Origin: Candidatus Bathyarchaeota archaeon
GTDB taxonomy: Archaea; Thermoproteota; Bathyarchaeia; Bathyarchaeales; DTEX01
NCBI GenBank assembly: GCA_003661975.1
Contig: QMXE01000002.1
Location: 1-51,483 of the forward strand
DNA: 51,483 bases
Direction: 5' to 3'
Shown here piece after piece: positions 6,524-51,483 of this stretch. Position numbers and translations under genes: made by a program. The notes under the pieces are model-generated. The model had not been told where the DNA came from, did not search any database, and saw only the letters and a list, made by a program, of their open reading frames with translations. Every line of letters starts with the position of its first letter. Position 1 is the first letter of the stretch.

Positions 6524-6779
6524 TACTCTTCACGTAAGATTTGATATTTTGAAGAATAAATATCATCGTTTCGGTATTCCATTTCATCCATTTTTCATAA
6601 GGTTTTTTGAATGAATCCAGTTTCAATTCCGATGCCTCAAAAATGAATCCACGACGAAGACAGACATCTATAACACATTCGTAAAAGACTATAGAAACTG
6701 AACGCAGACCTAAACGAGAAGAAACAGTCACCAAAAACAATTTAGTTTAAAAAGCAATAATATCCCATACATATGAGAG

Positions 6780-7883
6780 ATGATGCCTGAAGAGAGAATA
6801 TTGGCAGTATTTGAGAGAAGATCCATAGATAGAGTTCCATGGAATATTAGGCCTGAATTTTGGTATATTGTCAATAAGGCTAGGGGGACTCTCCCGGAGA
6901 AATATAGAGGAGTAGATATAGTTGATATATGCCGAGAGTGGGGTGCGAGTTGGAGATGCTATTCGGGATACTTCGTTGATAGCTTTGTTAAAGTGACATG
7001 TAATGGAGACTTAAGGTTCATCACGAGGGAAAAAGGAAGGCTCACAATAACTGAGATCGAGACGCCAGCTGGAACGGTAAGAGAGACGCGATTAAGGGAT
7101 GAGGAGGGATTTTCATCAAGAATCATAGAGTATCCCCTTAAGGAAATAAAGGATATTAAACCTATAATTTACATGCTGGAGCATATGCATGTAGAGTTTG
7201 ATCATGAAGTTTACGAGAAGATGAAGCGACGTTTGGGAGGCCATGGGATACTCTCATATTTCTTTCCAAGAACTCCATTTCAGAGGTTAATGATAAATCT
7301 TGCAGGGGTTGAGAGGACGATAAAGCTCGTCTTTAGATATCCCTCCGAGATGGAGGGTTTAATGGAGGAGATAAAGATGGCTAATGATCAATTCTATGAA
7401 GTCATGGCGTCAACGCCAATAAAGATATTCAATTTGGGCGAGAATATCGATGTAAGAATGACTTCTCCTAAGCTATTTGAGAAGTATTGTCTGCCATATT
7501 ATCAGGAAAGGGGAGATTATCTACATAAGCATGGAAAGTTCGTGCATATTCATGTGGATGGTTGGGCCAAGCCTTTGCTACCGCTTTTAAGGGAGACGGG
7601 ACTGGATGGAGTTGAGGCCCTCACAGTTAAGCCTGTAGGCGATATGACGCTCGGCGATATAAAGAGGGCGCTTGGAGATGAAATGATACTGGTAGATGGA
7701 ATACCATTCATTTACTTCCTTCCAGATATAATAAGCCTCGAGAAATTCGATAGATTTGTAAAGAGGATAATATCGATGTTCCCAGATAATCTAGTGTTGG
7801 GAATCTCTGATGAGCTTCCTCCCCCAGCTGACGAGAATAGAGTGAAGAGAGTATCGAGGATAATCGATGAGTTATACAAGTGA
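6780..7883 (+). CDS. Uroporphyrinogen-decarboxylase (URO-D/MtaA-like) family protein
   Basis: 367-aa ORF with an N-terminal ERILAVFERRSIDRVPW and a C-terminal VHIHVDGW...GLDGVEAL pattern typical of URO-D-fold enzymes. Function not assignable. Confidence 0.45.
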   Translation: MMPEERILAVFERRSIDRVPWNIRPEFWYIVNKARGTLPEKYRGVDIVDICREWGASWRCYSGYFVDSFVKVTCNGDLRFITREKGRLTITEIETPAGTVRETRLRDEEGFSSRIIEYPLKEIKDIKPIIYMLEHMHVEFDHEVYEKMKRRLGGHGILSYFFPRTPFQRLMINLAGVERTIKLVFRYPSEMEGLMEEIKMANDQFYEVMASTPIKIFNLGENIDVRMTSPKLFEKYCLPYYQERGDYLHKHGKFVHIHVDGWAKPLLPLLRETGLDGVEALTVKPVGDMTLGDIKRALGDEMILVDGIPFIYFLPDIISLEKFDRFVKRIISMFPDNLVLGISDELPPPADENRVKRVSRIIDELYK

Positions 7884-35076: not shown

Positions 35077-35547
35077 TCAGCTCTTACCCTCCAGTCCGAG
35101 AACTATCTCAACGTGACATAGAGTTTCAAAGCGGGGAGTGGATCTCCCAAACGCCCTGGGAATATACCTCTTAAGCTTTGTTCCGGGATATGCGGATGCA
35201 TGGATGACCCTCAAGTTTTCAGTGTCAAGACCCTTAAAGTTGGCATTCGCCTCTGCGCTCTCCAATATTGCTAGTATCTTCTTCGCAGCCTTAACTGGGT
35301 ATCCCCCCGCAGCGGCCTTCTGTAATCCCCTTCTATGAGGAGTCTTCTTCTTGAATCTAGTGAATGGGACGGCTCTCTTCATCTTTATTACCTGCTCAAG
35401 AAACTCCTTTGCCTCGTCGAGCTTCATCCCTTTTATGGCGGCACATACCTCCCTAGCCTTTTTATGGGATATCCTAAGCTCCCTACCACTCGCCTTTACG
35501 GTCGTATCGGGGTCTAGGCCGACCACGGAGTATCCCCATTTAGGCAA
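35077..35547 (-). CDS. rpl22: 50S ribosomal protein L22 (uL22)
   Basis: VKASGRELRISHKKAREVCAAIKGMKLDEA block. TTG start with GGTGA about 8 nt upstream. First gene of the cluster in this window. Confidence 0.93.
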   Translation of the reverse strand: MPKWGYSVVGLDPDTTVKASGRELRISHKKAREVCAAIKGMKLDEAKEFLEQVIKMKRAVPFTRFKKKTPHRRGLQKAAAGGYPVKAAKKILAILESAEANANFKGLDTENLRVIHASAYPGTKLKRYIPRAFGRSTPRFETLCHVEIVLGLEGKS

Positions 35548-35587
35548 TGAAAGTCACCTTTAACTTCCATTCATCAGATGCATGGTC

Positions 35588-35595
35588 ATTTATAA
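35588..35595 (-). promoter_or_regulatory. TATA-box-like element (TTATAAAT on the minus strand) upstream of rpl22
   Basis: Read directly, 41-48 nt upstream of the rpl22 start in a 90-nt intergenic gap. No experimental support. Confidence 0.3.
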
Positions 35596-35637
35596 GGATT
35601 TATCCTCATTCAAAAATTTTATCTTTACTCCGCTTGG

Positions 35638-36363
35638 CTAGCTGAGTGGATACCTAATCCCAGGAATCCTTCTTAGAGCAAGTAATATTGAGGATCCAGC
35701 TGTAAATGCAAATACAACCGTCAGTATGTCCTCTATGTATGAGTCAGATGCCTCTGCGAGGAAAGCCATGTAAACAGCGCTTTTCGGCAAGCCTAAGATG
35801 ATGTAGAGCCCGGCTGGGATAAGTAGGAATATCCTAGCAAGGGAATCAGTTACACAACCAATAAACGCTATTAATGACGTTGCGAATGAGATTTGACATG
35901 CATCCGCCTCGGGCAGCCTCCTAGAAAATCTAGCAGCAGGGTATATCAGGACTGGTGCTGCGAGAACGTCGAGGATCGTCCATAGAGGGATCTCTCTGCC
36001 GAGTGGATGTATAAAGTAGGCTCCAAGCATAACCGCATATATTAGGAGCAGAGTCTTCCATCTTCCCTTTACGATCAAGCCGCATGCGAGTGCTCCGATC
36101 GGCTCAGCGAATACCCCGAACATCCATAGGCCCGTCGGCTTAATCAATCTGGCGATTATGCTCCCTATGAGCACAGCTAGAAAGCCTGCGTATGGCCCTA
36201 AAATTATTCCCTCCAGAGGCTCCAAGTATATGCTTAGGCTTCTCCAAAGCCCAATTGGGATCAAATATAATATGGAGTGTAGAGCCGCGAACATCCCTAT
36301 CAGAGACGTCATTAATGATGACCTTCTCAATCCATCCAGCCCGCCGAAATATTTGATGCCCAA
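35638..36363 (-). CDS. Polytopic membrane protein (ECF S-component-like topology, family uncertain)
   Basis: 241 aa with about 6 hydrophobic helices. LEPLEGIILGPYAGFLAVLIGS resembles substrate-capture (S) components. Weak call. Confidence 0.35.
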   Translation of the reverse strand: MGIKYFGGLDGLRRSSLMTSLIGMFAALHSILYLIPIGLWRSLSIYLEPLEGIILGPYAGFLAVLIGSIIARLIKPTGLWMFGVFAEPIGALACGLIVKGRWKTLLLIYAVMLGAYFIHPLGREIPLWTILDVLAAPVLIYPAARFSRRLPEADACQISFATSLIAFIGCVTDSLARIFLLIPAGLYIILGLPKSAVYMAFLAEASDSYIEDILTVVFAFTAGSSILLALRRIPGIRYPLS

Positions 36364-36453
36364 CGCCTAATAAGAATTTAAGCGAACAGGCATCCTTAAA
36401 TCGCGAAAAGGTAAGATCTAATCTGAACTGAAGATCAACTTGGGGGAGTCGAT

Positions 36454-37542
36454 TTGAAGTTTTCTGAGTTTGCTGATCTGCCAGTAATAGACGCTCATGC
36501 ACACTTCGGCGAATTCGGAACTTGGAGGCCGAGATTAACCGCTGAAAACCTGCGATCACAGGGCGAATTTATGTTGAGTGTCATGAAGAATGGGAGGTTA
36601 AGCGGGATCAACGTTACTGGCAGGGAAGCTGGATTATATCTTAAGGCCAGATACCCAAGCATGTTCTATGCAGGCGGGTATGTTCCATGGTCTGGGGAGA
36701 CAGAATTGCTGAGGGTTAAGGACTGGAACGAGTACATCAGCAGACTGATCGAGATAGGATTCGATGGGATCGGTGAGATGGGAAATAAGCCGGTCTTGAG
36801 AAGCAAACATAAGCCTCTTGACGGAGACTATTATAGGGGATTCTGGGAGGCTTGCGAGTCTCTCGGAGTTCCAATTCTCTGCCACGTTGCCGATCCAGAG
36901 GAGTTCTGGGATGAGAAATCAGCTCCTGAATGGGCTAAGAGCAGGGGATGGGTATACTACTTGGATGATTATCCAACGAAGGAGGAGCTCTATGCGGAGA
37001 TGGAGAATGTTCTGGATGCGCATCCAAACCTGAAAGTGACGCTGTGCCACTTCTATTTTATATCAGCTGATCTTGAAAGGGCTGAGGAGTTCATGAACAG
37101 ATATGATAATGTAAGTTTGGATTTGACTTTGGGGATTGAACTCATGTATAATATCTCTCGGAGAAGAGATGACTGGAGGGATTTCTTCATAAAGTTTCAG
37201 GACAGAATAATCTTCGGAACTGATATTGCAACGTGGCAGACGCTACAGCAGGCTCTAGATAGGATATGGCTCATAAGGAACTTCCTCGAGTCAGATGAGG
37301 AATTCTACACTCCTGAAACGGCCGATATGCTCCTGACAAGATATGAGGAGCCATTCGTGGGCTTAAAGCTTCCAGAGGGGGCTTTGAGGAGGATTTACTG
37401 CGAAAACTTCAAGAGGCTCTGGGGAGACAGGCCTAGACCATTGAATCTCGAGATGATAATTGATTATCTTAAGGAGAAGGGAGAGAAGGAACTTTTATTG
37501 GCCATAAGATCCGTCGTGGAGGAAAATCAGCCGGACTGTTAG
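36454..37542 (+). CDS. Amidohydrolase-superfamily TIM-barrel metal-dependent hydrolase
   Basis: VIDAHAHFG metal-binding start, then ILCHVADP, LCHFYF and FGTDI blocks. TTG start. Confidence 0.6.
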   Translation: MKFSEFADLPVIDAHAHFGEFGTWRPRLTAENLRSQGEFMLSVMKNGRLSGINVTGREAGLYLKARYPSMFYAGGYVPWSGETELLRVKDWNEYISRLIEIGFDGIGEMGNKPVLRSKHKPLDGDYYRGFWEACESLGVPILCHVADPEEFWDEKSAPEWAKSRGWVYYLDDYPTKEELYAEMENVLDAHPNLKVTLCHFYFISADLERAEEFMNRYDNVSLDLTLGIELMYNISRRRDDWRDFFIKFQDRIIFGTDIATWQTLQQALDRIWLIRNFLESDEEFYTPETADMLLTRYEEPFVGLKLPEGALRRIYCENFKRLWGDRPRPLNLEMIIDYLKEKGEKELLLAIRSVVEENQPDC

Positions 37543-38273
37543 GCCTCTATCCTAAAGAGCCTCATAGAGTTCTCTCCTAAGACGAACTCCAATTGACGCT
37601 CAGTTAAACCCGCAACTCTAACCTTCTCGATCTCGAATGCGGGATGCCCAAACGGCATATCCGAGCCGTATATAACCCTTTCCTCTCCAACCTCATCAGC
37701 AGCCTCCTTTATCTTACTATGCATCGGCATACCCGAAGTCTCAAGAATTATATTCTCATGTTTCCGGGCTACCTCTATGGCGCCATTAATATAGACTATA
37801 TGCCCATGACCCATATGCCCCAGTATTATCTTGACATCTGGGTATCTATCGGCGAGGTTTCCAAAGTGCCAAGGCAGGGACCATGGTGGATGCCCACAAT
37901 GGAAGAGTATTGGGATTCTCCGCTTGGCAGCCTCATCCATTACAGGGTAGATTACAGGCTGATCCGGAAGATAAGAGTCTAATAGGGGATGCATCTTCAA
38001 TCCCCTGAAGCCCCACTCCTCCACTGCCACCCTGATCTTCTCTACTGCTCTATCTCCCTCATACGGATTAACCCAGAGTAGCCCCACTAGCCTATCCGGG
38101 TGCTTCTTCACTGCCTCCAGTGTGATCTCATTCGGGAGGGAGGATACGACGCTCCAAGAGATGCCGTGACGATCCATGATCTCAATCATGCCTTCAGCAT
38201 TCAATTTAACATTGAATAGTGGAAAATCCCCGAGGTGAGTATGGGAGTCGATTATGATCATATGCATCACCAA
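37539..38273 (-). CDS. Amidohydrolase 2 family (TIM-barrel metal-dependent hydrolase)
   Basis: IIDSHTHLG, GLKMHP, ILFHCGHPP, LGHMGHG and YGSDMPFGHP blocks. Confidence 0.75.
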   Translation of the reverse strand: MVMHMIIIDSHTHLGDFPLFNVKLNAEGMIEIMDRHGISWSVVSSLPNEITLEAVKKHPDRLVGLLWVNPYEGDRAVEKIRVAVEEWGFRGLKMHPLLDSYLPDQPVIYPVMDEAAKRRIPILFHCGHPPWSLPWHFGNLADRYPDVKIILGHMGHGHIVYINGAIEVARKHENIILETSGMPMHSKIKEAADEVGEERVIYGSDMPFGHPAFEIEKVRVAGLTERQLEFVLGENSMRLFRIEA

Positions 38274-38274
38274 C

Positions 38275-38805
38275 TCACATAATTACATACCTGATCTTTA
38301 AGGCTTTACGTATCGATGCTAGTAGAGGCACAGTAACTATTATGTCAAGTGCACTTAGCGGGAAGAATGTGATTAGGTCCGTGTAAGCGACTGGGCCGAA
38401 GAGCAGATAATCATAGATGAAGTATCCAAGATTCTTCTCTACAGCGGCTACTATCATAGCGATGACCTCCGATGCAACAGGTCTATTCTTAATTATACCC
38501 CTCAGCTTTCCCAGGAGGAAGCCCATGAAGCTCCGTATGATTATAGTTGCGGGCCACCAAGTTATGAATGCACTGCCCCACAGGGGATTCCATACATCGA
38601 ATAGGGCTGCTCCAACTCCGCAGGCGAACGCTCCGACAATAGGGCCGCAGAGTATAGCCGCAGTGAAGGAGGCTATATCTCCGATATGCCAGACTCCGAG
38701 AGGAGGAGGCATCGGAATCGATATTGAAGTCATTGCATATACAAAGGCCGTCATTACAGCGGTTAAGGCCGTAACCTTCGTTTTAGATCTTTCCTTCATG
38801 GGCAT
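38275..38805 (-). CDS. ECF-transporter S-component-like membrane protein
   Basis: 176 aa with 5-6 TM helices. LTAVMTAFVYAMTSISIPMP...WHIGDIASFTAAILCGPIVGAFACGVGAALFD resembles energy-coupling-factor substrate-binding components. No ECF A/T genes are in the window. Confidence 0.55.
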   Translation of the reverse strand: MPMKERSKTKVTALTAVMTAFVYAMTSISIPMPPPLGVWHIGDIASFTAAILCGPIVGAFACGVGAALFDVWNPLWGSAFITWWPATIIIRSFMGFLLGKLRGIIKNRPVASEVIAMIVAAVEKNLGYFIYDYLLFGPVAYTDLITFFPLSALDIIVTVPLLASIRKALKIRYVIM

Positions 38806-38820
38806 CTCCCATGATAAACA

Positions 38821-38844
38821 ATAGTAAAGTTATAACTTTACTAT
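38821..38844. promoter_or_regulatory. Perfect 24-bp palindrome ATAGTAAAGTTA|TAACTTTACTAT upstream of the S-component-like gene
   Basis: Read directly. The two 12-nt halves are exact reverse complements. It lies 16-39 nt upstream of the ATG at 38805 and just downstream of a TTTAAAA box (about 38851-38857, minus strand). Confidence 0.4.
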
Positions 38845-38960
38845 CTCCCTTTTAAAGCTTACGCAACAAACCTCCAAGGGATCACACGGACAGAATTAAG
38901 CAAAATATTTATGACTTCAAATCAGCTTTTAGATTGATGTTTATATGCCCTGGCGCGGAG

Positions 38961-38999
38961 AGCCGGAGGTCGTGGGTTCAAATCCCACCGGGTCCGCCA
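38961..38999 (+). tRNA. tRNA-Arg(GCG) 3' half (positions 38-73 plus encoded CCA), located upstream of its 5' half
   Basis: A-GCCGG (38, 39-43), AGGTC variable loop, GTGGG-TTCAAAT-CCCAC T arm, CGGGTCC acceptor 3' strand, G73, CCA. No matching 5' acceptor strand exists upstream. Confidence 0.8.
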
Positions 39000-39008
39000 T
39001 AAATAAGT

Positions 39009-39048
39009 GGACCCGTAGTCTAGTCTGGATTAGGACGTCGGCCTGCGG
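39009..39048 (+). tRNA. tRNA-Arg(GCG) 5' half (positions 1-37), located downstream of its 3' half
   Basis: GGACCCG acceptor strand (a perfect complement of 38989-38995), TA, D arm GTCT-AGTCTGGATTA-GGAC with G18G19, G26, TCGGC anticodon stem strand, and CTGCGG loop with anticodon GCG. No T arm follows. Confidence 0.8.
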
Positions 39049-39307
39049 AGCCGGGGCGATCATCTTCCACTTTTGAATAGGACATCTATATTCTCAAGTG
39101 AAGATGCAGTAATTCTCGCCACCGTTTGCTCTGATCTTCAAGTCTAAATCGTAAATGTGGGCGTCATCATAACGGCAATTCTCCAAAATCTGATGTTATC
39201 TCTTCTATGCATAAGATCACCTCAGAGGAGACTGGAGGATAGAGCCAAGAGAATATGCTTAAAGCATGGAGTCAAATATAGAATTGCAACGTGAATGATT
39301 GGGCTCT

Positions 39308-41080
39308 TTAGGCCTGTAGACTCTTGGCCATTATCTCCTCGTTATTCGGCGTTCTTATGAAGGCTGGAACGTTCCTCTGCTTTGTAGCCTTGTAGGAGAC
39401 GAATAGCCACTCTCCAATATCTAGCTCAGTTGTCCTGTCGAGCAGGTCGTAGCTTAGGCTGAAAGCATCCGCTATCACCATTCTATCATAGAATCTTGGG
39501 AGGACGCTGACGAAGTAGCTATGGAGCTGCTGGAGGGCATTCACGTTCAGGTGAGCCACCCGCTGACTGCATATCCAGCAGTTCGCTCTATACTTCCTCC
39601 CCTGCCTGAGCAATGCCTCAACGGCTATGTTAGACTGCTCGGTGAAGTCCTCTTTCTTAGTCCTGTCAGGTATGAACTCCTGAGCCTCATCTAGAACTGT
39701 GAGGACCGTTCTTCCAACACCCCGCGTCTTCTTCAGCCATAACAGCTGATCTATGAATCTGCTTACGACATATCTTGCATCCTTTGGATCCGGCAGATAA
39801 ACTATATTAACTCCTCTGTATTCTCCGACTGCAACCTTCTCTGCAAGCCATTCTGCATTTCTTATGGCTTCCTCCTCGCCGTCATACTCTTCCTTGTCCA
39901 ATCCCTCCTCGAGTATTCCCATTACCGCCTGAACATCCTTAACCATCCCGGACATTGAATGGACCGATGACAGGAACTCTTTAAGTATCTCTTCCAGTTC
40001 AACTCTTGCCTCTATGTCCCTTCTGACCTCATCAAGTGAAGTTTCATCATCGTATCCCTTTCTTATCAGAAGCCTATTTATCTTGTTTAGTGCTATTGCA
40101 GCCTGCACTGCTCCTCTCCTTCTTCCCCTCGCTATCTCACCGAAGAGATCAAGTAGGAAGCCCATGTTTAATGGTATCTGCCTGAGCGGAGGTGATAATG
40201 ATAGTCTCTGGATCCTACCCATATCTATTAGCCTCTGAATACGCTTCATTATTATATTTCTGTCTATCATCTGCTCTAGCGTCTCAGGTATCGCCTGCGA
40301 ATCCATTACTCGATCTACATCCCCTCCGAAGTTCTCTGTTGAGAATAGACGTGGCTCTAGATCTAATAGGTGAATCAAATATTCCCCTGCGACGTCGAAG
40401 ATGACGATTGATATTCCCTCTATCTTCTCGAGAGCCCTCCTTATGAGGAATGAGCATAGATTAGATTTTCCGCATCCCGTAAAGCCGAATATTCCAGTGT
40501 GATACCTAACCATCTCTGAGATGTTCACCGTTAATGGTAGATCGAATCCTATCAGGTTGCCTATTGCAACTCCATTCTCGACGCATAAGAACTCCTTAAC
40601 CGTCTCCTTTGAGAGTATGTGTGCCTCGCTTCCAACTAGAGGCGTCAAATTAGACCGCTCAAACTTTAATCTTCCATTCTCTATTCTCATTAGGTATCCC
40701 GTTGGGACCGCTATAACATCGATCCAGGTCTCATCGCTCGTCCTCCATCCCCTATCGATCGTCTCCAAGAACTCCCTGCGTATGACCTTCGGGACTGAAA
40801 TGTCCATTCCAAGCATCTGGTAATGCATTGGCCTGACTGCTACAACCTCATAGATAATGAAGGTCTCTCCGCTCTGGGTTGGCCTATGGAATGCTATGAA
40901 GTTCGGCTCATGCAGCCTATCGAGGACGTTAAGGCTGAACCTCGCCTCTGCAACGGCGACTTGACTTGTTAATGTTATCTCGCCCTCCCTTGTCCTCGAT
41001 GTGCGCGTCGTTACTCTGTGGCTTCTTAGGCGAGCCGAGAACTCCCCATCCATCTCATCAAATATTTTGCTTGGCATCAC
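39308..41080 (-). CDS. HerA-like hexameric ATPase/translocase (FtsK-HerA superfamily, DUF87)
   Basis: 590 aa. An N-terminal barrel-like region (FIIYEVVAVRPMHYQ), Walker A GIFGFTGCGKSN, Walker B TVLTVLDEAQEF, and RQGRKYRANCWICSQRVAHLN as in HerA. Its start overlaps the stop of the upstream NurA-like ORF (ATGA). Confidence 0.8.
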   Translation of the reverse strand: MMPSKIFDEMDGEFSARLRSHRVTTRTSRTREGEITLTSQVAVAEARFSLNVLDRLHEPNFIAFHRPTQSGETFIIYEVVAVRPMHYQMLGMDISVPKVIRREFLETIDRGWRTSDETWIDVIAVPTGYLMRIENGRLKFERSNLTPLVGSEAHILSKETVKEFLCVENGVAIGNLIGFDLPLTVNISEMVRYHTGIFGFTGCGKSNLCSFLIRRALEKIEGISIVIFDVAGEYLIHLLDLEPRLFSTENFGGDVDRVMDSQAIPETLEQMIDRNIIMKRIQRLIDMGRIQRLSLSPPLRQIPLNMGFLLDLFGEIARGRRRGAVQAAIALNKINRLLIRKGYDDETSLDEVRRDIEARVELEEILKEFLSSVHSMSGMVKDVQAVMGILEEGLDKEEYDGEEEAIRNAEWLAEKVAVGEYRGVNIVYLPDPKDARYVVSRFIDQLLWLKKTRGVGRTVLTVLDEAQEFIPDRTKKEDFTEQSNIAVEALLRQGRKYRANCWICSQRVAHLNVNALQQLHSYFVSVLPRFYDRMVIADAFSLSYDLLDRTTELDIGEWLFVSYKATKQRNVPAFIRTPNNEEIMAKSLQA

Positions 41081-42285
41081 TTCTCCTCCATCACCGCCCT
41101 TTCCCTTGCTCCCTCAACTTCCCTCCTAATATCCCTAAATCTCCTAGCTATCGTGAATATCTTTTGTCTCCTTGATAGGCCTCCGAGCTCTAGGTCTGCA
41201 ACTCCCCTTAGGAGCCCCTTTATCATCTTAACCTCATTCTTCACTGCCTTATCGGCTAGATAGAGCAGCTGATTATGCCCCATAGCCTCCATGACCTCTG
41301 GATTATCACACTTCAATAGGAGGCGGAGAATAAATGTGTCAAGTGGATTCTCGCCTTCACCCTCCCAATACGGGGATATCTTAACCTTCTTTCTTCCCTC
41401 GATCGCGGTTATCTCAGCATGGAACTTATCATCCACGCTTGGAATGTAAAACCTATCATACAGGAATGTTGGTGATCTAACTCCAAGATCGGATTTGAAT
41501 TCTCTAAGTTGAAAGTATGCCTTAACGAATTGCCTCTCCATCGAGATTAATTGCCTAGCCGCTCTAAGCGGAGCCTTCTCATCTCCCTCCACCAGAGTTG
41601 TGAAGCATGCATCATAGCTTATTGTGCGCCATGGAGCATTGAAGAGATGGGAGTTTACGCTGCTTAGTATAGTTAGGAAGGCTCTGTCATGCCTTAGGTT
41701 TGGGGGCTTCTCATCCTCCGGAATGAGCCCCTCATGCCTAGCGTATGGTATGACCGCCCGTATATAATCCGATGCTGACGTGTCTTTCGCTATTCCGATT
41801 ATTAGGAGCCTACCATCTATGACCTTCTCCCTGAGCATGTGGATGAGCATGACGTTAACTGCGTTTAAATCGAAGACTGTCAGCCATGAATCGTCACCTA
41901 GCATCAATGGATGTTCGTAGGAGCCGAATATTCTATCGACTATCATTAGTGAAGTCTCTTTAACTCTTACCCAGTAATCCTTAACTTGCCCCTTAATCTT
42001 AAGCGTTGGATTCGCATCTTCAGGGTTGAAGTCCTCGGCGAATAATCTCCCATCAGAATCCTCATGCATCTTTAGCAGCTTCTTAAGCATGCTCCTTCCG
42101 GCACGTTCAGATATCCCTAAATCCTCAATCAGCTCCCTAAATGAGCATTCTCCAACCTTCAATAGCCTATGAATGGCGACGAATGGGAGGTATCTTCCCC
42201 GGGGGGGAATGTAACCTTTCCCTGAACCTAAGATGAAAGCCAAGCTGAAGTCCAGATAGCTTGTAGGGCCATGGGAAGTATTCAT
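41077..42285 (-). CDS. NurA-like nuclease, C-terminal portion, with an apparent N-proximal winged-helix insertion
   Basis: IIGIAKDTSASDY, FLYDRFY and GHNQLLYLADKAV resemble the central and C-terminal NurA motifs. Residues about 35-75 (AIHRLLKVGECSFRELIEDLGISERAGRSMLKKLL) look like a wHTH. The reading frame stays open upstream of the listed ATG as far as 42363. Confidence 0.55.
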   Translation of the reverse strand: MNTSHGPTSYLDFSLAFILGSGKGYIPPRGRYLPFVAIHRLLKVGECSFRELIEDLGISERAGRSMLKKLLKMHEDSDGRLFAEDFNPEDANPTLKIKGQVKDYWVRVKETSLMIVDRIFGSYEHPLMLGDDSWLTVFDLNAVNVMLIHMLREKVIDGRLLIIGIAKDTSASDYIRAVIPYARHEGLIPEDEKPPNLRHDRAFLTILSSVNSHLFNAPWRTISYDACFTTLVEGDEKAPLRAARQLISMERQFVKAYFQLREFKSDLGVRSPTFLYDRFYIPSVDDKFHAEITAIEGRKKVKISPYWEGEGENPLDTFILRLLLKCDNPEVMEAMGHNQLLYLADKAVKNEVKMIKGLLRGVADLELGGLSRRQKIFTIARRFRDIRREVEGARERAVMEEK

Positions 42286-42311
42286 CTCAAATAGAACGGA
42301 CTTTTTCCTCT

Positions 42312-42872
42312 TCAGTAAAGGCGGAGATCCCTTGAGACTGGCCCATAAGTACCATGCATCGGCCTATCCAAAAATACGAGTTTAACATCATCCTCGTCAG
42401 CAGCTTTTAGGGCTAAGTATAGCTCTGCCATCGTCATGAGCGAGTATGGTATGCGCTCAGCCGTTCTGGTAAGGTCATATTCGGTTGAGTCGGACTCCTC
42501 AGTGACGTAGTAGAGATCCTCGATCCATAGAGGAACTGACGTTGAGGCCATAAGCCTTCTGTCCCTAACAACCTCATCCAAGTCGAATTCTATTTCATCG
42601 TTGACTGTGAATTTGCATCTGAAGCCCGTGGCGCAGACGTAGAAGAGAAGCATCTCGAGGACCTCATCGTAATCCATTGAGCCGTCTATGCCGACTGCAT
42701 AGTAGTCTCCAGGCTCAAAGAAGGAAGCCTCAGTTCCCGATTTACTGAGGCTTCTAATGAAGGAGGCGAGGCCCTCCCTATCCCTGAGATCATTGATTCT
42801 CCGCGTTAGCAGATTGGCAAGCTCAGATGTTTGCCTCCTCAGTTTCTCGGCTAGAAAACTCATCTTAACCAA
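42312..42872 (-). CDS. NurA-like nuclease, N-terminal portion (DGS catalytic motif)
   Basis: YYAVGIDGSMDY (NurA motif I Asp, codon at 42684-42686), MTMAELYLAL (candidate Glu) and KLVFLDRPM (motif corresponding to LLDGSL). It ends 26 nt before the next ORF, in a different frame. TTG start, with an alternative ATG at 42863. Confidence 0.55.
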   Translation of the reverse strand: MVKMSFLAEKLRRQTSELANLLTRRINDLRDREGLASFIRSLSKSGTEASFFEPGDYYAVGIDGSMDYDEVLEMLLFYVCATGFRCKFTVNDEIEFDLDEVVRDRRLMASTSVPLWIEDLYYVTEESDSTEYDLTRTAERIPYSLMTMAELYLALKAADEDDVKLVFLDRPMHGTYGPVSRDLRLY

Positions 42873-42954
42873 TCAGAAAATTATGCTTATTGGGCATTAA
42901 TTACTTTCTGTTGTGATTATAGATCTCGCTGGCTTACTTATGAGTCGTGTATGT

Positions 42955-44388
42955 TTAGATTTTCCTCCAATACTTTAGGTATTTCTCCTCCGTTCCCATT
43001 CGGCTTAAGAAGTCTACGAGCTTCGCATGTATCTCCTCCGCCACATCTCTCTCCTCATCAAAAAGATTGTTCTCTTGCCTTGGATCCCTACGTAGATCAT
43101 AAAGTTCATTTTGGATCTTGCCCGCTATTTCCTCCAGTCTCTCGAAGTTCACCTTTCTCCCAGGATTATCCCTTAATGCATCCTCGAATTGCCCCGCGTA
43201 TATCAGGGACCACTCCTTCGTTGTCACGGTTATTCTTTGTCCAGCTACTGGACCGTGAATTATTGGAGGCGATGTAACCGCGAATTCACGCCAATCCGTA
43301 TCTTCTCCTCTCATCAGCGGCAATAATGAACTTCCCTGTATTGGGATTGGACTCTTAGCTCCGATGACATCTAGGATCGTCGCTGTTATGTCTTGGGGCT
43401 GAACCAGAGCATCGCAGTGCCATCCACCCTTAATCTCAGGATGATAGATCAGTAGTGGAACATGCGCTACTTCCTCATATAGTGGGCAGTATCCGGTGGC
43501 CAATGGCCTTATTATGCTCTTTCCGATAAGCCCGTGCTCTCCAAGATAGAATCCATGATCACTAGTGAATATTATCATGGATTCATCTACAAGCCCGAGA
43601 TCCTCCATCCTCTCTAGGAGGAAGCCTATCCACTTATCAACGAGGGTTGCCTCAGCAGCATATAGAGCCCGGCAATGTTTAAGTTCATCCTCTGATAGGA
43701 GATTGGCCGGTCCATAGATTGGATATATCACCTCTTCGCCGTCATACTCTGGATCATACATATTCACATACCATCGGGGCGGATCCCAAGGTTCATGTGG
43801 ATCGAAGGTGTCTATGTGCAGAAAGAATTTTTCATGCTGATCATAATTTAGCTCGAGCCATTGAGCCGCTGTTCTCATCGTTTGGGCTACGAAGTAGTCC
43901 TCTTCGAATCTGCGTAATGAGACGTTTCGTAGATATTGTATTGTTGTTCTTCCTCCATATCTCAGCTTGCTCCGGTCACATGGGAGCTTGACGCTTCTCG
44001 GCGAAGTCATGTATCTATCGTTTTCCTGTCCCCTAATCCATATCCAACCGTCAAATCCCCTATCATAGTTACAGTCATCCTTTATCATGTGCGGCGTGTC
44101 TACGATCAGTTGCGTTACACATCCGGATTGACGGAGCATCTGAGCCAGCACTATTTCACCCTCAGGTATTGGCCCCCACTTAGAGTATGTAAAGGTGTAT
44201 TTTCCAGTATAGAGGTCATGTCTATGAGGGATAGTCGGGAATGAAGCAGCGTATGCCTTATCAAATATGACTGCCTTCTCAGCGAATGAGTCTAGACTCG
44301 GAGTTTTAACCCACTCTCCTCCGTAGCATTTTAGGTTATCATATCTGAATGTATCTGAGACTATGAGGACAACGTTTTTTACGGTCAT
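42955..44388 (-). CDS. Sulfatase-family (alkaline phosphatase superfamily) hydrolase, non-canonical nucleophile motif
   Basis: 477 aa. VVLIVSDTFRYDNL metal-site start, and TSDHGFYLGEHG and similar blocks. At the C/S-x-P-x-R position the sequence reads T-I-P-H-R (44221-44235). Confidence 0.75.
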   Translation of the reverse strand: MTVKNVVLIVSDTFRYDNLKCYGGEWVKTPSLDSFAEKAVIFDKAYAASFPTIPHRHDLYTGKYTFTYSKWGPIPEGEIVLAQMLRQSGCVTQLIVDTPHMIKDDCNYDRGFDGWIWIRGQENDRYMTSPRSVKLPCDRSKLRYGGRTTIQYLRNVSLRRFEEDYFVAQTMRTAAQWLELNYDQHEKFFLHIDTFDPHEPWDPPRWYVNMYDPEYDGEEVIYPIYGPANLLSEDELKHCRALYAAEATLVDKWIGFLLERMEDLGLVDESMIIFTSDHGFYLGEHGLIGKSIIRPLATGYCPLYEEVAHVPLLIYHPEIKGGWHCDALVQPQDITATILDVIGAKSPIPIQGSSLLPLMRGEDTDWREFAVTSPPIIHGPVAGQRITVTTKEWSLIYAGQFEDALRDNPGRKVNFERLEEIAGKIQNELYDLRRDPRQENNLFDEERDVAEEIHAKLVDFLSRMGTEEKYLKYWRKI

Positions 44389-44791
44389 ACGCCATCACCA
44401 TATAAACATTGGAGATCAATAATAAGATTAAATCTTAGATTTTCGTGCTCCTCTTATGTGGGAAGCCCGCTTCTTTATGCCGACATCTTCATTTATACCT
44501 TCATTATAAGATGGATTCTTCCGCATCATGCCCATTCATACTTCTTCTGCCATTTCAAGCAGGATCTCAACGCATCCTCTAATGGTTTAATCCAACCTGA
44601 AACTCCATGATGGGCGATGCGGATTGCAAGATTAACAAATAATCCCATCGACTTCAATTTAATAAGTGCCAGGTTATTGTTTCGTGAGTGCGTATTCGGC
44701 GGGGGAATTCTCTTTTCTGCTGATTCCACCCGTAATGGTCAATCCACAATATTTAAGGAGGAGTCGATAAGCTATAGATGTGAGGAGTATA

Positions 44792-45739
44792 ATGGTCGAG
44801 ACGATTATCAGAGAATTCGTTGAGGGAAGAGATGAGAGGGCTTGGATAGAACTCCATAATGAATTCAAAAGTTACTATTATGGCTCGGACTATGAACCCC
44901 TAGATGAAAGAGGCGTAGAGTGGTTTAAGAGGACGCCTTGGTGGAGGGAGAGCAGACTATTCATAGCCGAGAAAGATGGAGAGCCCGTCGGCTTTATCCT
45001 TCCATTCATTGATAAGGCATATGATCCTCCGAAGGGATACCTTTGGGAGTTTGCCGTAAAGCCTAGCCTTGAGGGGGATGAAGCTGATAGTATCCTACTC
45101 GGCAAGGCTATCTCTTGGCTCTCATCAGCTGGAGCGAGGGAAATCCAAGCGTCGGCGAGGGATAACATGCTCAAGCGCATACGCCTCTACCAATCAGCGG
45201 GATTCAAGATGATACGGACCTTCAGCAGGATGAGGCTTAAACCAGAGGAGATCCGGGAGAATATTGAAGCATGCGTTGAGGTGGAGCTCAGAACTGCAAA
45301 TCCAACACATAGCTGTGAGGACCTAAAGATCTTGAATGCACTATGCAATATGGCATTTCAGGAGCACTTCGACTTCAGACCAGAAACTCTCGAGGAGACC
45401 AAGGCGTGGCTTGAGGAGGAGGGCTACGAAAACCACGTTTTAATCGCACTGATAAGAGGAAAGCCGGTGGGCTACGTTGTAGCGACCATAAGCGATAAAC
45501 CCTCGAGGGACAGGCATAAGAGAGGATTCATAAGCTCGATTGGAATATTAAAGCCTTTCAGGAGGCGGGGGATAGGAACAAGCCTTATACTCGAGGCAAT
45601 AAGATGGCTATCCGAGAAGGGAGCAAAATCAATAGAGCTTGACGTAGATGATGCTAACCCGACTGGAGCGCCGCAATTCTACGCTAAAATAGGCTTCAAG
45701 GCAACCTTCAAAACCCTAACATACCTCAAGAGACTATAG
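44792..45739 (+). CDS. Tandem-GNAT N-acetyltransferase
   Basis: Two GNAT-like halves. The second carries motif A, FRRRGIGTSLILEAIRWLSEKG. The ATG at 44792 is preceded by GAGGAG with a 4-nt spacer. The track ORF starts at a GTG at 44780. Confidence 0.75.
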   Translation: MVETIIREFVEGRDERAWIELHNEFKSYYYGSDYEPLDERGVEWFKRTPWWRESRLFIAEKDGEPVGFILPFIDKAYDPPKGYLWEFAVKPSLEGDEADSILLGKAISWLSSAGAREIQASARDNMLKRIRLYQSAGFKMIRTFSRMRLKPEEIRENIEACVEVELRTANPTHSCEDLKILNALCNMAFQEHFDFRPETLEETKAWLEEEGYENHVLIALIRGKPVGYVVATISDKPSRDRHKRGFISSIGILKPFRRRGIGTSLILEAIRWLSEKGAKSIELDVDDANPTGAPQFYAKIGFKATFKTLTYLKRL

Positions 45740-46379: not shown

Positions 46380-47693
46380 TCATCTATATCCTAAACCTCG
46401 ACCGATCAGGATGATTGCTAGAGATGTGATGTACGCTAGTATTAATCCGTAAATAACTGCAAAGAGAGTCCACTTCCATGAGTTGGTCTCTCTGTATATG
46501 GCGCCTATAGTTGCCACGCACGGTATATAGATTAAGGTAAAGGCCATAAAAGCGAATCCCGTGAGAGGAGTGAAGACTCCCTGGCTCCTAATGACTTCCT
46601 GTATCTCTCCAATCTCGCTTTCCTCCCCTAATCCGAAGATAACAGCGAAGGATCCAACGACGATCTCTTTTGCTATGAAGCCGAAGAGGAGGGCTACTGC
46701 TCCTCTCCAGTCAAAGCCTAGAGGACGGAAGATCGGCTCGAGGCTGCGGCCAAGCATGCCTAGATAGGTCTCTTCCAGAGGCACGCCCCAAGGATGACTT
46801 GAGAGAAGCCAAACTACTATGATTCCGGCCAGAATTATCGTTCCAGCCTTCTTCAAGAATAGGGAGGCCCTCTCCCACATGTGAATCAACGTGCCCTTAA
46901 TGGTTGGTTTAGAGTACATTGGAAGTTCCAGAATGAATGGTGAGGGCTTCCCCTTAAAGTATGGTATTGTTCTTCTGAAGAGCAAAGCCATGAGCACTGC
47001 TAGGGATATTCCAAGGATGTACATGGAATATGTGCCTGCGACTGCATATGGGCCGAGAACGGCTCCGCCAATAAGGATATAAACTGGAAGTCTAGCACTG
47101 CAGGACATTAATGGATTTACGAGTATCGTTAGTATGCGATCCTCCTCTCTGTCTATGGTTCTTGTCGCCATCACCGCTGGGATGTTACATCCAAATCCAA
47201 TCAGCATGGGAATGAAGGACTTTCCATGCAACCCAAGCTTATACATAAGCTTGTCTACTACGAATGCCGCTCTGGCAAGGTATCCACTATCCTCAAGCAG
47301 CGACAGCCCAAAGAATAGGAAGAAGAGCGGAGGGATGAAGACAAGCACCCCTCCAAGCCCGCCGAAGATTCCGTCGGCTACGAAGCTAGCTATCCACTCA
47401 TCGGAGATTGCTGAGCTTGATATCTGCCCGAGCCAGCTGAAGATTAAATCTATCAGATCAGAGAGGGGAGCTGAAACATCGTATGTAAAGCGGAAGAGAG
47501 CCCACCAAAACGTGAGGAAGATCGGTATGCCCAGATACTTATTCAGAAAAACCCTATCGAGTAAGTCGGAGAGGGTTAGGGGCTTCTCTCCCCTCAAAAC
47601 CTTCTGCAGTATCTTATTTATGAATTCGTAGCGGCGCTCGGCGAAGAAGACTTCCGGATCTTCTCCAAGTATTTCTTTGGCCTTCAAGCTCAT
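46380..47693 (-). CDS. feoB: Ferrous iron transporter FeoB, membrane (gate/nucleoside-recognition) domain as a separate ORF
   Basis: 437 aa, polytopic. LDRVFLNKYLGIPIFL, GYLARAAFVVDKLM..GLHGKSFIPMLIGFGCNIPA and LVNPLMSCSARLPVY are FeoB C-terminal blocks. The start overlaps the G-domain ORF stop (ATGA at 47690-47693). Confidence 0.85.
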   Translation of the reverse strand: MSLKAKEILGEDPEVFFAERRYEFINKILQKVLRGEKPLTLSDLLDRVFLNKYLGIPIFLTFWWALFRFTYDVSAPLSDLIDLIFSWLGQISSSAISDEWIASFVADGIFGGLGGVLVFIPPLFFLFFGLSLLEDSGYLARAAFVVDKLMYKLGLHGKSFIPMLIGFGCNIPAVMATRTIDREEDRILTILVNPLMSCSARLPVYILIGGAVLGPYAVAGTYSMYILGISLAVLMALLFRRTIPYFKGKPSPFILELPMYSKPTIKGTLIHMWERASLFLKKAGTIILAGIIVVWLLSSHPWGVPLEETYLGMLGRSLEPIFRPLGFDWRGAVALLFGFIAKEIVVGSFAVIFGLGEESEIGEIQEVIRSQGVFTPLTGFAFMAFTLIYIPCVATIGAIYRETNSWKWTLFAVIYGLILAYITSLAIILIGRGLGYR

Positions 47694-48391
47694 CGAGTCA
47701 CCTCCAAAATCTCATCTCGATATGGGCTTCTCTCAACCTCTCTGAGGACTTCCTCGTCTCCCTCAAGAATCTTAATTGCAAGCCATCTCGTCGGATATTT
47801 GCTGGATAACTCCTCATCCTTAAGTATGGCTTTCTCCACTCTGGAGATCAGCTCTTCAGCTGCTTTTCCATATCCGACTGCTATTTTTCTCCTCCTTCCC
47901 CCCTTAGAGGCTTTAATTATAGCATCGAGTAAGTCCTTAATGCCCTCCTTTGTGGTTGCGACTGTTGCCACTACGGGCACTCCAAGCATTCTGGAGAGGC
48001 CGTCAATGTCGATCTCATAGCCTAGACTCTTCGCTATGTCATACTTGTTTAATGCTATGACGACGTTTGCCTCGAGCTCCAGAAGCTGAAGCGTCAGGTA
48101 CAGGTTTCTCTCAAGATTTGATGCGTCGACTATATCCACCACAACATCCGGCTTCTCCTTAACTATGTAGTCCCTAGCGATCAGCTCATCTATTGAATGA
48201 GCTGTGAGGCTGTAGATTCCGGGAAGATCGATGATCTCTATCTCCTCCCCCCTATACTGGCATCTTCCCTCCTTCTTCTCAACAGTCTTTCCAGGCCAGT
48301 TTCCAACGTGAGCCCTTCCTCCAGTGAGATCGTTAAAGATGAGGCTTTTACCCACATTTGGATTTCCTATAAGAGCAACCCTTATCGTCAT
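47690..48391 (-). CDS. feoB: Ferrous iron transporter FeoB, N-terminal GTPase domain as a separate ORF
   Basis: G1 GNPNVGKS, DLPGIYSL and G4 NKYD, followed by the helical S-domain. 233 aa. Confidence 0.88.
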   Translation of the reverse strand: MTIRVALIGNPNVGKSLIFNDLTGGRAHVGNWPGKTVEKKEGRCQYRGEEIEIIDLPGIYSLTAHSIDELIARDYIVKEKPDVVVDIVDASNLERNLYLTLQLLELEANVVIALNKYDIAKSLGYEIDIDGLSRMLGVPVVATVATTKEGIKDLLDAIIKASKGGRRRKIAVGYGKAAEELISRVEKAILKDEELSSKYPTRWLAIKILEGDEEVLREVERSPYRDEILEVTR

Positions 48392-50695: not shown

Positions 50696-51483
50696 TTATG
50701 CCATTAACATAAAAATTGGAGCTGGAATTGCCACATAATATTCATTAACGAAAATTTCTTTACCCGCATATACTAAAACTCCCCTGACTCTCAATTGTTT
50801 ACTTAGATCTGAAAGCTTTCTCACATGGTTGCCATTAACTTCTTGACCAGAATAGACTTCGATAGGAATAAGTCTCCCTTGTACGTCTACAAGAAAGTCT
50901 ATTTCTCTACCGGGACGCGGTTTGTAGTAGAACATTTTCCTTTTAAGTAGTCTGAGATCCTGAATGACCTCTAGGGAAAGTATCATATGAGCAACATTTA
51001 CAGCAACAACCATTTCGGTTACTGCGCCTTTCCATTTATCCTGCATGTCTAGACTCATGGAGTATGGATCTCTGCTTCCTGCGCTTAGAGCTTTAAAGGC
51101 GTAGAAGATTAGGGGATCCCAGAAGTAAAACTTTCTGGGGCTCTTAGGAGGGGATCTGCGTTTCGCGAATTCTTTAAGCTTTGATACTTCTAGCAGAATG
51201 AAAGCATTTACTAAATAGTCAAGATATTGCTTGACTGTATTATGCGAGATTCCAATTTTTCTTGCTAAGCTGCTGGTGCTGATTTCCTTTACAGGAACTG
51301 TTTCAAAAGGTCCCCCCGGAGCTTCTAACATTTGCCAAAGAACGTTATAAAGCGTGTCTTCATTCAACCTCCATCTCATTGCATCTTTAACTGCAAGGTC
51401 TACAAAATCAAAATAAACACTTGGATGAATTCTTCCTAGAGCGATGTATTGCCGAATTGCTAGGGGAAATCCTCCCGTTAAAA
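50696..51483 (-). CDS. COG1373-type AAA+ ATPase (AAA_14 + DUF4143), C-terminal part; gene runs off the window end
   Basis: A DUF4143-like region (ISHNTVKQYLDYLVNAFIL) and a restriction-endonuclease-like tail (REIDFLVD...IPIEV). The frame is open with no stop from 51379 to 51483 (LTGGFPLAIRQYIALGRIHP...), so the listed Met is internal. Confidence 0.65.
   Translation of the reverse strand, partial: LTGGFPLAIRQYIALGRIHPSVYFDFVDLAVKDAMRWRLNEDTLYNVLWQMLEAPGGPFETVPVKEISTSSLARKIGISHNTVKQYLDYLVNAFILLEVSKLKEFAKRRSPPKSPRKFYFWDPLIFYAFKALSAGSRDPYSMSLDMQDKWKGAVTEMVVAVNVAHMILSLEVIQDLRLLKRKMFYYKPRPGREIDFLVDVQGRLIPIEVYSGQEVNGNHVRKLSDLSKQLRVRGVLVYAGKEIFVNEYYVAIPAPIFMLMA

Follow-up and report, generated by a model that had tools for sequence, protein, structure and literature searches.

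A Stand-Alone nurA-herA Operon with a Predicted Long Winged-Helix NurA in a Bathyarchaeon, Adjacent to a Predicted Circularly Permuted tRNA-Arg(GCG) Gene

The window analyzed here is the whole of the 51,483-nt contig QMXE01000002.1 from Candidatus Bathyarchaeota archaeon (assembly GCA_003661975.1). Three co-directional open reading frames (ORFs) are found on its minus strand at 42312-42872 (186 aa), 41077-42285 (402 aa), and 39308-41080 (590 aa), as an earlier interpretation made from the letters of the DNA (the sequence-only reading) had described. We conclude that together they represent a two-gene nurA-herA operon typical of its lineage, which most likely, with a probability of about 0.78, encodes a housekeeping resection machine in an uncharacterized long form that contains a winged helix-turn-helix (wHTH). 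The first gene (41077-42863, minus strand) would encode a NurA-family nuclease of ~595 aa if intact and is broken in the window into the two shorter ORFs, the upstream one being 186 aa from a TTG start or 183 aa from an ATG at 42863. The second gene (39308-41080, minus strand) encodes HerA, the hexameric DNA translocase, with a length of 589/590 aa, and its start overlaps the NurA stop. This overlap had been given as ATGA; the letters read aaGTGATGcc, that is, GTGA (41080-41077) or TGATG.

The nuclease gene was reconstructed from its relatives. With the 402-aa ORF as the query, 409 homologues were found, all of them single proteins (~595-600 aa); the full-length ones lie almost entirely within 575-635 aa. 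The closest homologue, P0001 (598 aa), is 92% identical over the 402-aa part and runs continuously through both reading frames of the window (..RDLRLLLKRKKSVLFEMNTSHG.. and ...GPVSRDLRLLLKRKKSVLFEMNTSHG...). At the junction, it matches the end of the 186-aa ORF and then follows the frame of the 402-aa ORF, a frame that stays open ahead of the ATG. Judged from these alignments, the 186-aa and 402-aa ORFs are one ~595-aa gene interrupted by a 1-nt deletion. The base is missing at 42318-42319 (minus strand), where the window has CGCCT-TTACTG and its relatives have CGCCTATTACTG; L004, a Bathyarchaeia contig from a metagenome-assembled genome (MAG), carries CGCCTATTACTG where the window carries CGCCTTTACTG. 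The 219-kb contig L125 from ENA is 99.98% identical to window positions 35308-45076 (~9770 nt), and the differences are one single-nucleotide polymorphism and one gap, the gap being the missing base at 42318/42319. The HerA of the window (P0263) is identical in sequence in other public assemblies, and the 595-aa ORF is intact in five of the six assemblies with the identical HerA (L125 and L127-L130). In the sixth, L126, the NurA ORF is split at another place and the sulfatase gene is split too, which points to poor assembly. A cluster at 90% identity holds 595-598-aa proteins from many contigs, and its 402-aa and 183-aa members come solely from the window contig. All 82 other loci analyzed contain a single ORF. 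The two separate ORFs of the sequence-only reading are thus not an architecture of their own, since the frameshift is private to the window contig and the gene is intact in its siblings.

The missing base is most likely an error of the consensus or assembly, or else a private variant, as judged by comparison with the siblings. It is possible, though we consider it the less probable case, that the frameshift is real in this strain, so that NurA would be either a recent pseudogene or two polypeptides that split the active site, with D63/E118/D169 on one chain and H533 on the other. The contig is not generally error-ridden, given that 42318/42319 is the sole uncompensated coding indel between the window and L004 over 10.3 kb; moreover, the deletion is outside any long homopolymer and coincides with the boundary between the first half of the nuclease core and the insertion described below. 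Against a genuine frameshift, the five sibling assemblies with the intact gene are from other samples and are 99.8-99.98% identical, none of the 82 other loci has the split, and the downstream HerA is intact and identical to that of the siblings. In addition, neither a slippery heptamer nor an evident ribosome-binding site for the second ORF is seen on direct reading of the sequence. A programmed frameshift of the ribosome at 42318 was rejected, with no X XXY YYZ heptamer in place and intact siblings. General assembly sloppiness was also considered; the split of feoB elsewhere in the window is present in L004 as well and hence is not an error.

The assignment of the nuclease to the NurA family was decided by structure prediction and a fold search, because sequence searches gave nothing or a borderline match to the Pfam NurA family. 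The 186-aa and 402-aa ORFs have no match in Pfam, PADLOC, or NCBIfam. For Pfam NurA (PF09376; arCOG00367), P0001 scores 21.1 bits against a cutoff of 21, and 19 of the 37 members of the family alignment match at E ≤ 1; the full-length relatives have no sequence match in the PDB and none in NCBIfam. The AlphaFold2 (AF2) model of full-length P0001, calculated from the 37-sequence alignment, has a predicted local distance difference test (pLDDT) value of 88 and a predicted template modeling (pTM) score of 0.88. When this model was compared with the PDB using Foldseek, all 10 matches at E ≤ 0.001 were NurA chains (E values of 8e-9 to 3e-6, probability 1.00), including those of the Thermococcus kodakarensis HerA-NurA complex (9x1m_G, 9x1n_G, and 9x1l_G), Pyrococcus furiosus (3tal, 3tai, and 3taz), and Saccharolobus solfataricus (2ygk). 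The next matches, with E values of 0.04-0.4, were mostly MarR-type winged-helix proteins. The model of P0001 therefore has the RNase H/PIWI-like fold of NurA.

The NurA core is found in two halves (residue numbering is that of P0001 throughout). The first half (42360-42692, minus strand) contains D63 (GIDGS), E118/D119 (IEDL), and D169 (FLDRP), and the second half (41242-41796, minus strand) contains D364 (GIAKDT), H533 (GHNQ), and D541 (LADK); the columns of all of these residues are invariant in the 37-sequence alignment. Every motif quoted in the sequence-only reading was located on the minus strand of the window: GIDGS at 42678-42692 in the 186-aa ORF, and GIAKDT at 41779-41796, GHNQLLYLADKAV at 41242-41280, and a helix-turn-helix-like stretch at 42073-42153 in the 402-aa ORF. 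The catalytic residues of P. furiosus NurA (PfNurA) are Asp51, Glu105, Asp126, and His411 (PMC3300031). The order of D63, E118/D119, D169, and H533, and the kinds of secondary-structure element on which they lie, fit this catalytic set and suggest an equivalence, in which H533 would be the candidate counterpart of His411.

Between the two halves of the core, the secondary structure of the model reveals an insertion of ~130 residues (residues 190-320; 41914-42305, minus strand). NurA proteins have been divided into those with and those without an M domain, which in PfNurA comprises residues 189-286 and is inserted in the PIWI domain (PMC3300031). The insertion in P0001 is at the same topological position. 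A wHTH is found within it at residues 226-293 (41995-42198, minus strand), with the elements helix-strand-helix-helix-wing in the AF2 model; Pfam HTH_24 and related helix-turn-helix families match 10 of the 37 members. These elements, together with the Pfam and MarR-type Foldseek matches, support the proposal of the sequence-only reading that a wHTH had been gained, and the insertion is best described, from the model, as a winged-helix version of the M domain. The unusual length of the protein was also correctly noted, as ~595 aa compares with 319-433 residues for the chains of the solved structures. Between residues 226 and 293, L252 is the only near-invariant column, and the poor conservation of the wHTH surface argues against a fixed sequence-specific target. 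Most likely, the winged helix would provide the distal face of the nuclease channel with a surface for binding DNA or a partner. In the literature searched, the coverage of which was incomplete, we found no report of a wHTH-containing NurA, a negative that does not prove novelty.

The 590-aa protein is clearly a member of the DUF87/HerA family. It matches Pfam PF01935 (DUF87) at 2.5e-15, with a score of 57.6 bits against a cutoff of 23.2, and it is matched by the HerA models of PADLOC and NCBIfam. The Walker A motif GFTGCGKS (40463-40486, minus strand) and the Walker B motif VLDEAQE (39677-39697, minus strand) are invariant in 26 homologues. The closest sequence in the PDB is S. solfataricus HerA (4d2i, 1e-16). 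The AF2 model (pLDDT 84) has strands in its N-terminal part (residues 15-155), a RecA-like core that bears the Walker motifs, and inserted helices (residues 305-416), which corresponds to the three-domain HerA fold of an N-terminal β-barrel, a RecA-like core, and a helical bundle. The top Foldseek matches, over nearly the full length, are 4d2i from S. solfataricus (1.7e-20) and 9x1m_A from the T. kodakarensis HerA-NurA complex (7e-20), followed by the anti-phage HerA proteins of TdpAB, Sir2-HerA, and DUF4297-HerA at 6e-18 to 1e-16 and weaker. Since this margin is small, the fold by itself cannot separate housekeeping from defense HerA proteins; the evidence from genomic context does. The identification of a NurA-HerA nuclease-translocase pair by the sequence-only reading is thus upheld, by fold searches for NurA and by Pfam and fold matches for HerA. 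A variation of HerA was seen in L038 (5583-8939, plus strand), from a Nitrosopumilales-labeled MAG, where Pfam identifies an intein splicing domain and a LAGLIDADG endonuclease within HerA. This intein adjoins the P-loop region and immediately precedes the conserved DUF87 region. Similarly long HerA ORFs (~1120 aa), judged by length only, are also present in L067, L077, L079, and L081 from Nitrososphaerales- or Nitrosopumilales-labeled MAGs.

The distribution of the long NurA was determined with an exhaustive profile search of 1.84 billion representatives, which gave only 273 clusters at E ≤ 1e-3 and 85 at E ≤ 1e-30. The matches that cover most of the profile are typically ~560-680 aa, and this length range delimits a family of long NurA proteins. 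From 111 stretches with a relative in GTDB species genomes, 80 loci were kept, each from a different MAG. Their labels are mostly Bathyarchaeia/Bathyarchaeota, Nitrososphaeria/Thaumarchaeota (including Ca. Nitrosocaldus and Conexivisphaerales), Methanomethylicia, or Aigarchaeota, and the few odd taxon labels look like misbinning. Gene neighborhoods were compared over ±10 kb in 83 loci (the window and 82 others). In 72 of the 82 other loci, a HerA ORF is directly downstream of NurA on the same strand, usually with a 4-nt overlap. No HerA ORF was detected in the remaining 10 loci; most of these are on short contigs that stop shortly past the NurA gene. After clustering of the neighboring ORFs, only NurA and HerA recur; the next most common neighbor is found in 24 loci of one sublineage, and no other neighbor is conserved across the 83 loci. 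The pairwise distances of NurA and HerA are correlated with r = 0.95 over 62 loci (Mantel test, 0 of 999), so that the long NurA is both co-encoded and co-evolving with the HerA ATPase, and the identities among homologues roughly follow taxonomy.

Mre11 and Rad50 do not recur within ±10 kb in these 83 loci, and in the window no ORF within 8 kb resembles either protein, as had been noted from the sequence. The pair is therefore not part of the canonical mre11-rad50-herA-nurA operon, a statement that concerns the type of operon and not the functional pathway. Among the annotated neighborhoods, that of L001 contains Topo VI and RFC, that of L002 contains AsnRS/AspRS and CTP synthase, and that of L003 contains primase, GINS, and PolD; Mre11 and Rad50 are absent from all three. 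For Ca. Nitrosocaldus cavascurensis, whose genome is complete, a published table gives a single nurA (NCAV_1103) next to a herA (NCAV_1104); mre11/rad50 are NCAV_1257/1258, and another herA stands by itself. The long NurA is found in the same gene order in a Nitrosocaldus MAG (P0094, L059). The sequence-only reading had proposed a paralogue of the housekeeping pair, and in the Nitrosocaldus table these genes are nearly the sole copies, with a single nurA, yet with one extra lone herA. The conservation of the pair, its presence once per genome among the loci, its housekeeping neighbors, and the co-divergence of NurA and HerA fit a vertically inherited core operon.

A mechanism can be proposed from the solved complexes of S. 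solfataricus, P. furiosus, and T. kodakarensis (PMC12977600, PMC3300031). The ATP-driven hexameric ring of HerA would capture duplex DNA, pull it through the central tunnel, and feed it to a NurA dimer seated on the ring. The strands would be separated and cut at two RNase H/PIWI-type Mn2+ sites, for which D63, E118, D169, and H533 are the candidate residues, and the DNA ends would thereby be processed for RadA-mediated recombination. More speculatively, the winged-helix insertion, at the place of the PfNurA M domain (channel apex and rear face), could bind the emerging DNA or a partner.

Several points weigh against this assignment as a housekeeping resection machine. The long form of NurA is biochemically uncharacterized, and the in vivo role in end resection is debated even for the canonical complex (PMC12977600). 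The similarity to characterized NurA proteins is too low for a PDB-sequence or NCBIfam match, and for this reason the catalytic residues were equated by inference and not by superposition. The statement that the pair is the only copy depends on one Nitrosocaldus table and on 80 genomes that each appear once. HerA also scores about equally (50-67 bits) with the housekeeping and anti-phage HerA models of NCBIfam, and its best match in PADLOC is a HerA model of the CRISPR "Type III coevolved" kind (5e-28). The last two findings, and the nearly equal fold matches to anti-phage HerA proteins, count in favor of a defense system, in which HerA would be a motor or scaffold that activates a NurA-like nuclease against invading DNA, in analogy to Sir2-HerA, DUF4297-HerA, or TdpAB; the operon is, moreover, only 250 nt from a tRNA that is targeted by an integrase in sibling strains. 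However, the NurA-like partner has no PADLOC match, either as fragments or at full length, and no relative of the long NurA was found in 2.9 million IMG/VR viral contigs. In the 83 loci, the pair occurs once per genome among housekeeping neighbors with no recurrent defense neighbor, the two proteins co-diverge, and their identities roughly follow taxonomy. The tRNA adjoins herA only in relatives with HerA at least ~95% identical, and at the tRNA, where insertions are present in some relatives and absent from others, the operon is found in either case, which places it outside the inserted elements. We therefore regard a role in defense or in a mobile element as very improbable and already largely refuted, and the paralogous immunity or mobile-element machine suggested by the sequence-only reading is not supported.

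A second alternative is that the pair has a role distinct from Mre11-Rad50-coupled resection, with a winged-helix module that would direct the nuclease or control it, for example in the recognition of DNA structure or sequence, in replication-fork or chromosome processing, or in regulated degradation. The long wHTH NurA and HerA may then form a separate functional class common to the Bathyarchaeia, Nitrososphaeria, Aigarchaeota, and Methanomethylicia, a self-sufficient regulated processor of DNA ends or forks that is independent of Mre11-Rad50 and whose wHTH recognizes DNA or recruits a partner. The pair is never linked to mre11/rad50 in the 83 loci, the wHTH-containing insertion is conserved in the family, several neighborhoods contain replication genes (RFC, primase, GINS, PolD, and Topo VI), and the in vivo role of the canonical HerA-NurA complex is itself unsettled, with alternatives proposed (PMC12977600). 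We consider this distinct role, like the separate class built upon it, to be unlikely. Unlinked genes can cooperate, and Nitrosocaldus has mre11-rad50 elsewhere in its genome; the poor conservation of the wHTH surface residues argues against a fixed sequence-specific target; and the insertion takes the place of the M domain of PfNurA, which is a dimerization and partner surface (PMC3300031).

Among the characterized systems, the best structural matches to the long NurA are PfNurA (3TAL/3TAI) and the T. kodakarensis HerA-NurA complex (9X1L-9X1P), and the latter is also among the best two matches for HerA. Like the euryarchaeal NurA proteins with an M domain, the long NurA has N-terminal helices, a PIWI/RNase H core split by a middle domain, and the D-E-D-H order of motifs, and herA and nurA are adjacent and translationally coupled in both. 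The sequence identity, however, is 11-14%, with no match to PDB entries at the sequence level. The long NurA exceeds the solved chains by ~150-200 residues, and its middle insertion of ~130 residues contains a winged helix in place of the strand/helix M domain of PfNurA. The gene order is nurA followed by herA, and the operon lacks mre11-rad50, unlike those of the euryarchaeal systems. S. solfataricus, which is in the same broad TACK/Thermoproteota group as the host of the window, provides the top sequence and fold match for HerA (4D2I), and the core of its NurA (2YGK) matches in fold. That NurA is short (the 2ygk chain has 319 residues) and without an M domain, and the pair is encoded in an mre11-rad50-herA-nurA operon, whereas the pair in the window stands alone. 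A herA-nurA operon without mre11-rad50 is known in Deinococcus-Thermus and has been proposed to be a minimal end-resection machine (PMC12977600). The D. radiodurans complex (7F6D) resembles the window in its two-gene operon and gives a weak NurA fold match (7f6d_G, E 0.065), but this system is bacterial, is thought to have been acquired horizontally, and has a short NurA. The anti-phage systems Sir2-HerA (Nezha), DUF4297-HerA, and TdpAB share the HerA fold and domain order and pair the hexamer with a nuclease or effector; they differ from the pair described here in that the latter has a NurA-fold partner, is conserved as a single copy in a housekeeping context, and is absent from the viral contigs searched.

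This analysis corrects the annotation of two "hypothetical proteins" on the window contig to one frameshifted NurA gene. It also documents a stand-alone operon of long winged-helix NurA and HerA in a large, ecologically dominant archaeal group, with the long form present in Bathyarchaeia, Nitrososphaeria (including Ca. Nitrosocaldus), Methanomethylicia, and Aigarchaeota. The long form is so far unstudied and is scarcely recognized by standard profiles; most of the copies encountered in this analysis are unnamed or called "hypothetical protein". It overturns nothing and is a reasonable target for work on archaeal recombination. Compared with this NurA variant of modest interest, the permuted tRNA next door is the more unusual object.

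The sequence-only reading had placed a tRNA gene directly beside the operon. ARAGORN and Rfam at the gathering threshold found no tRNA anywhere in the window. A tRNA gene is nevertheless predicted at 38947-39058 (plus strand), adjoining the operon and outside of it, and the sequence identifies it as a circularly permuted tRNA-Arg(GCG) gene, the expression and processing of which are predicted. By direct reading on the plus strand, the element consists of a leader helix (38947-38954), one strand of a central 4-bp helix (38955-38958), the 3' exon with nucleotides 38-76 and an encoded CCA (38961-38999), a 9-nt spacer (39000-39008), the 5' exon with nucleotides 1-37 (39009-39048), and a trailer helix (39050-39057). 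The leader and trailer form a helix of 8-9 bp, and the adjacent 4-bp helix joins the leader to nucleotides 32-35 of the anticodon loop. With two 3-nt bulges, and both cleavage sites after the second bulge nucleotide, this is a canonical helix-bulge-helix-bulge-helix (BHB) motif at the standard 37/38 intron position. The minimum-energy fold of the precursor has the BHB topology and encloses the tRNA arms, and Arg(gcg) is the most frequent call of ARAGORN on the rejoined halves. The element thus has the 3' half upstream, a cloverleaf on rejoining, and a BHB at the junction, the three features of a permuted tRNA gene.

The element is conserved among relatives of the window. In L084, its conservation is ~97% over 200 nt, and nearly all of the differences fall in the flanks; the wider flank is 87% conserved. 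Scanning metagenomes for the acceptor-stem junction yielded 40 loci. Of these, 19 contain this permuted tRNA-Arg, and their spacers are 9, 22, 28, 29, or 30 nt long. For the 16 distinct sequences (window included), 98.9% of the cells are paired, and compensatory double changes are found in six of the nine leader/trailer pairs; no shuffle or slid register reaches these values. A leftover duplication of an attachment (att) site was rejected as the main explanation, as the arrangement is conserved in the 19 loci, mostly without herA nearby, and it is further disfavored by the compensatory changes and the variable spacers. The best subthreshold match in Rfam is the Y-RNA-like YrlA model, whose topology is likewise permuted and tRNA-like (25.4 bits; gathering score, 69). 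A Y-like RNA was judged unlikely in view of the two 3-nt bulges around the 4-bp helix, the CU-GCG-GA anticodon loop after splicing, and the encoded CCA. The adjacency of the tRNA is incidental to the operon, because it is limited to the close relatives noted above.

The only archaeal precedents found are those of Thermofilum pendens, the tRNA-iMet and tRNA-Tyr of which are permuted at 59/60 (PMC3218864). The permuted tRNAs of T. pendens and of the red alga Cyanidioschyzon merolae resemble that of the window in the short intervening sequence, the BHB at the junction, and the encoded CCA (PMC3218864). The tRNA of the window differs from those of T. pendens in its junction (37/38 and not 59/60), its isoacceptor (Arg(GCG)), and its host (Bathyarchaeota); its spacer, to be compared with those of the Thermofilum and Cyanidioschyzon genes, is 9-30 nt across relatives. 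No report of permuted tRNAs in Bathyarchaeia or Thaumarchaeota was found in the literature searched, with coverage that was incomplete and is not proof of novelty. With strong support from covariation, the predicted gene would add to the archaeal permuted tRNAs of Thermofilum a case from a new lineage, with the junction at the canonical 37/38 splice position. Since standard tools (ARAGORN and Rfam) miss the permuted gene, tRNA-Arg(GCG) may look absent from such genomes.

The permuted tRNA is also linked to integrase-mediated insertion. The relatives L004 and L084, about 93% identical, carry ~1.26 kb of additional DNA between the herA stop and the tRNA (window position ~39222-39226; L084, 2944-4204; L004, 13652-13837) that has no counterpart in the window. 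This segment holds small degenerate ORFs, one of which has a weak radical-SAM match. In L126 and L127 (about 98.6-99.9% identical), the match to the window stops at 39041/39042, between tRNA positions 30 and 31 in the 5' half. A tyrosine-integrase ORF of 292 aa is found past the break at 5993-6871, and the shared trailer/anticodon DNA supplies its first 14 codons. Several sibling contigs end inside the tRNA. These findings suggest that the permuted tRNA is the attachment site of an integrative element. The tRNA is an insertion hot spot, and the NurA-HerA operon is on its conserved side; the association with a variable region made in the sequence-only reading is thus valid for the tRNA, which varies and is an integrase target in siblings, but not for the operon.

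A second family of permuted tRNAs was observed in L088-L090, L095, L097, L098, L104, L110-L112, L117, L119, and L120, on metagenome contigs of up to 1 Mb, several of them from soil or rhizosphere. The 3' half (..GGTCGCGGGTTCGAATCCCGTCGGGTCCGCCA) is followed by a spacer of 3-13 nt and the 5' half (GGACCCGTAGCTCAG..), the leader GGCATGACGA pairs with the trailer TCGTCATGCC, and some copies have an extra intron. With the halves rejoined, ARAGORN suggests tRNA-Asn(GUU), with a putative junction near 29/30.

The flank of the operon, described by the sequence-only reading as a stretch of accessory-type genes, in fact contains a sulfatase, a GNAT acetyltransferase, FeoB, an iron repressor, amidohydrolases, an energy-coupling factor (ECF) S-component, and a ribosomal-protein operon. 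Further genes in the window encode aIF5B, FtsZ, S-adenosylmethionine (SAM) synthetase, and SepRS. The side from herA to FeoB is syntenic in L004, with ~93% DNA identity. FeoB is encoded by two overlapping ORFs (46380-47693 and 47690-48391, minus strand), one with the G domain and part of the cytosolic helical domain and the other with the remainder and the membrane domain. This split is genuine and common to a relative, and not an assembly error, because L004 has no indel there. At 1089-2696 (minus strand), a 535-aa class II aminoacyl-tRNA synthetase has the C-terminal domain of SepRS (O-phosphoseryl-tRNA synthetase), and this implies that the Bathyarchaeon makes Cys-tRNA by the indirect Sep-tRNA route. 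Near the end of the contig, a 227-aa ORF (50696-51379, minus strand), possibly truncated, contains a DUF4143 domain, which usually sits at the C-terminus of AAA+ ATPases.

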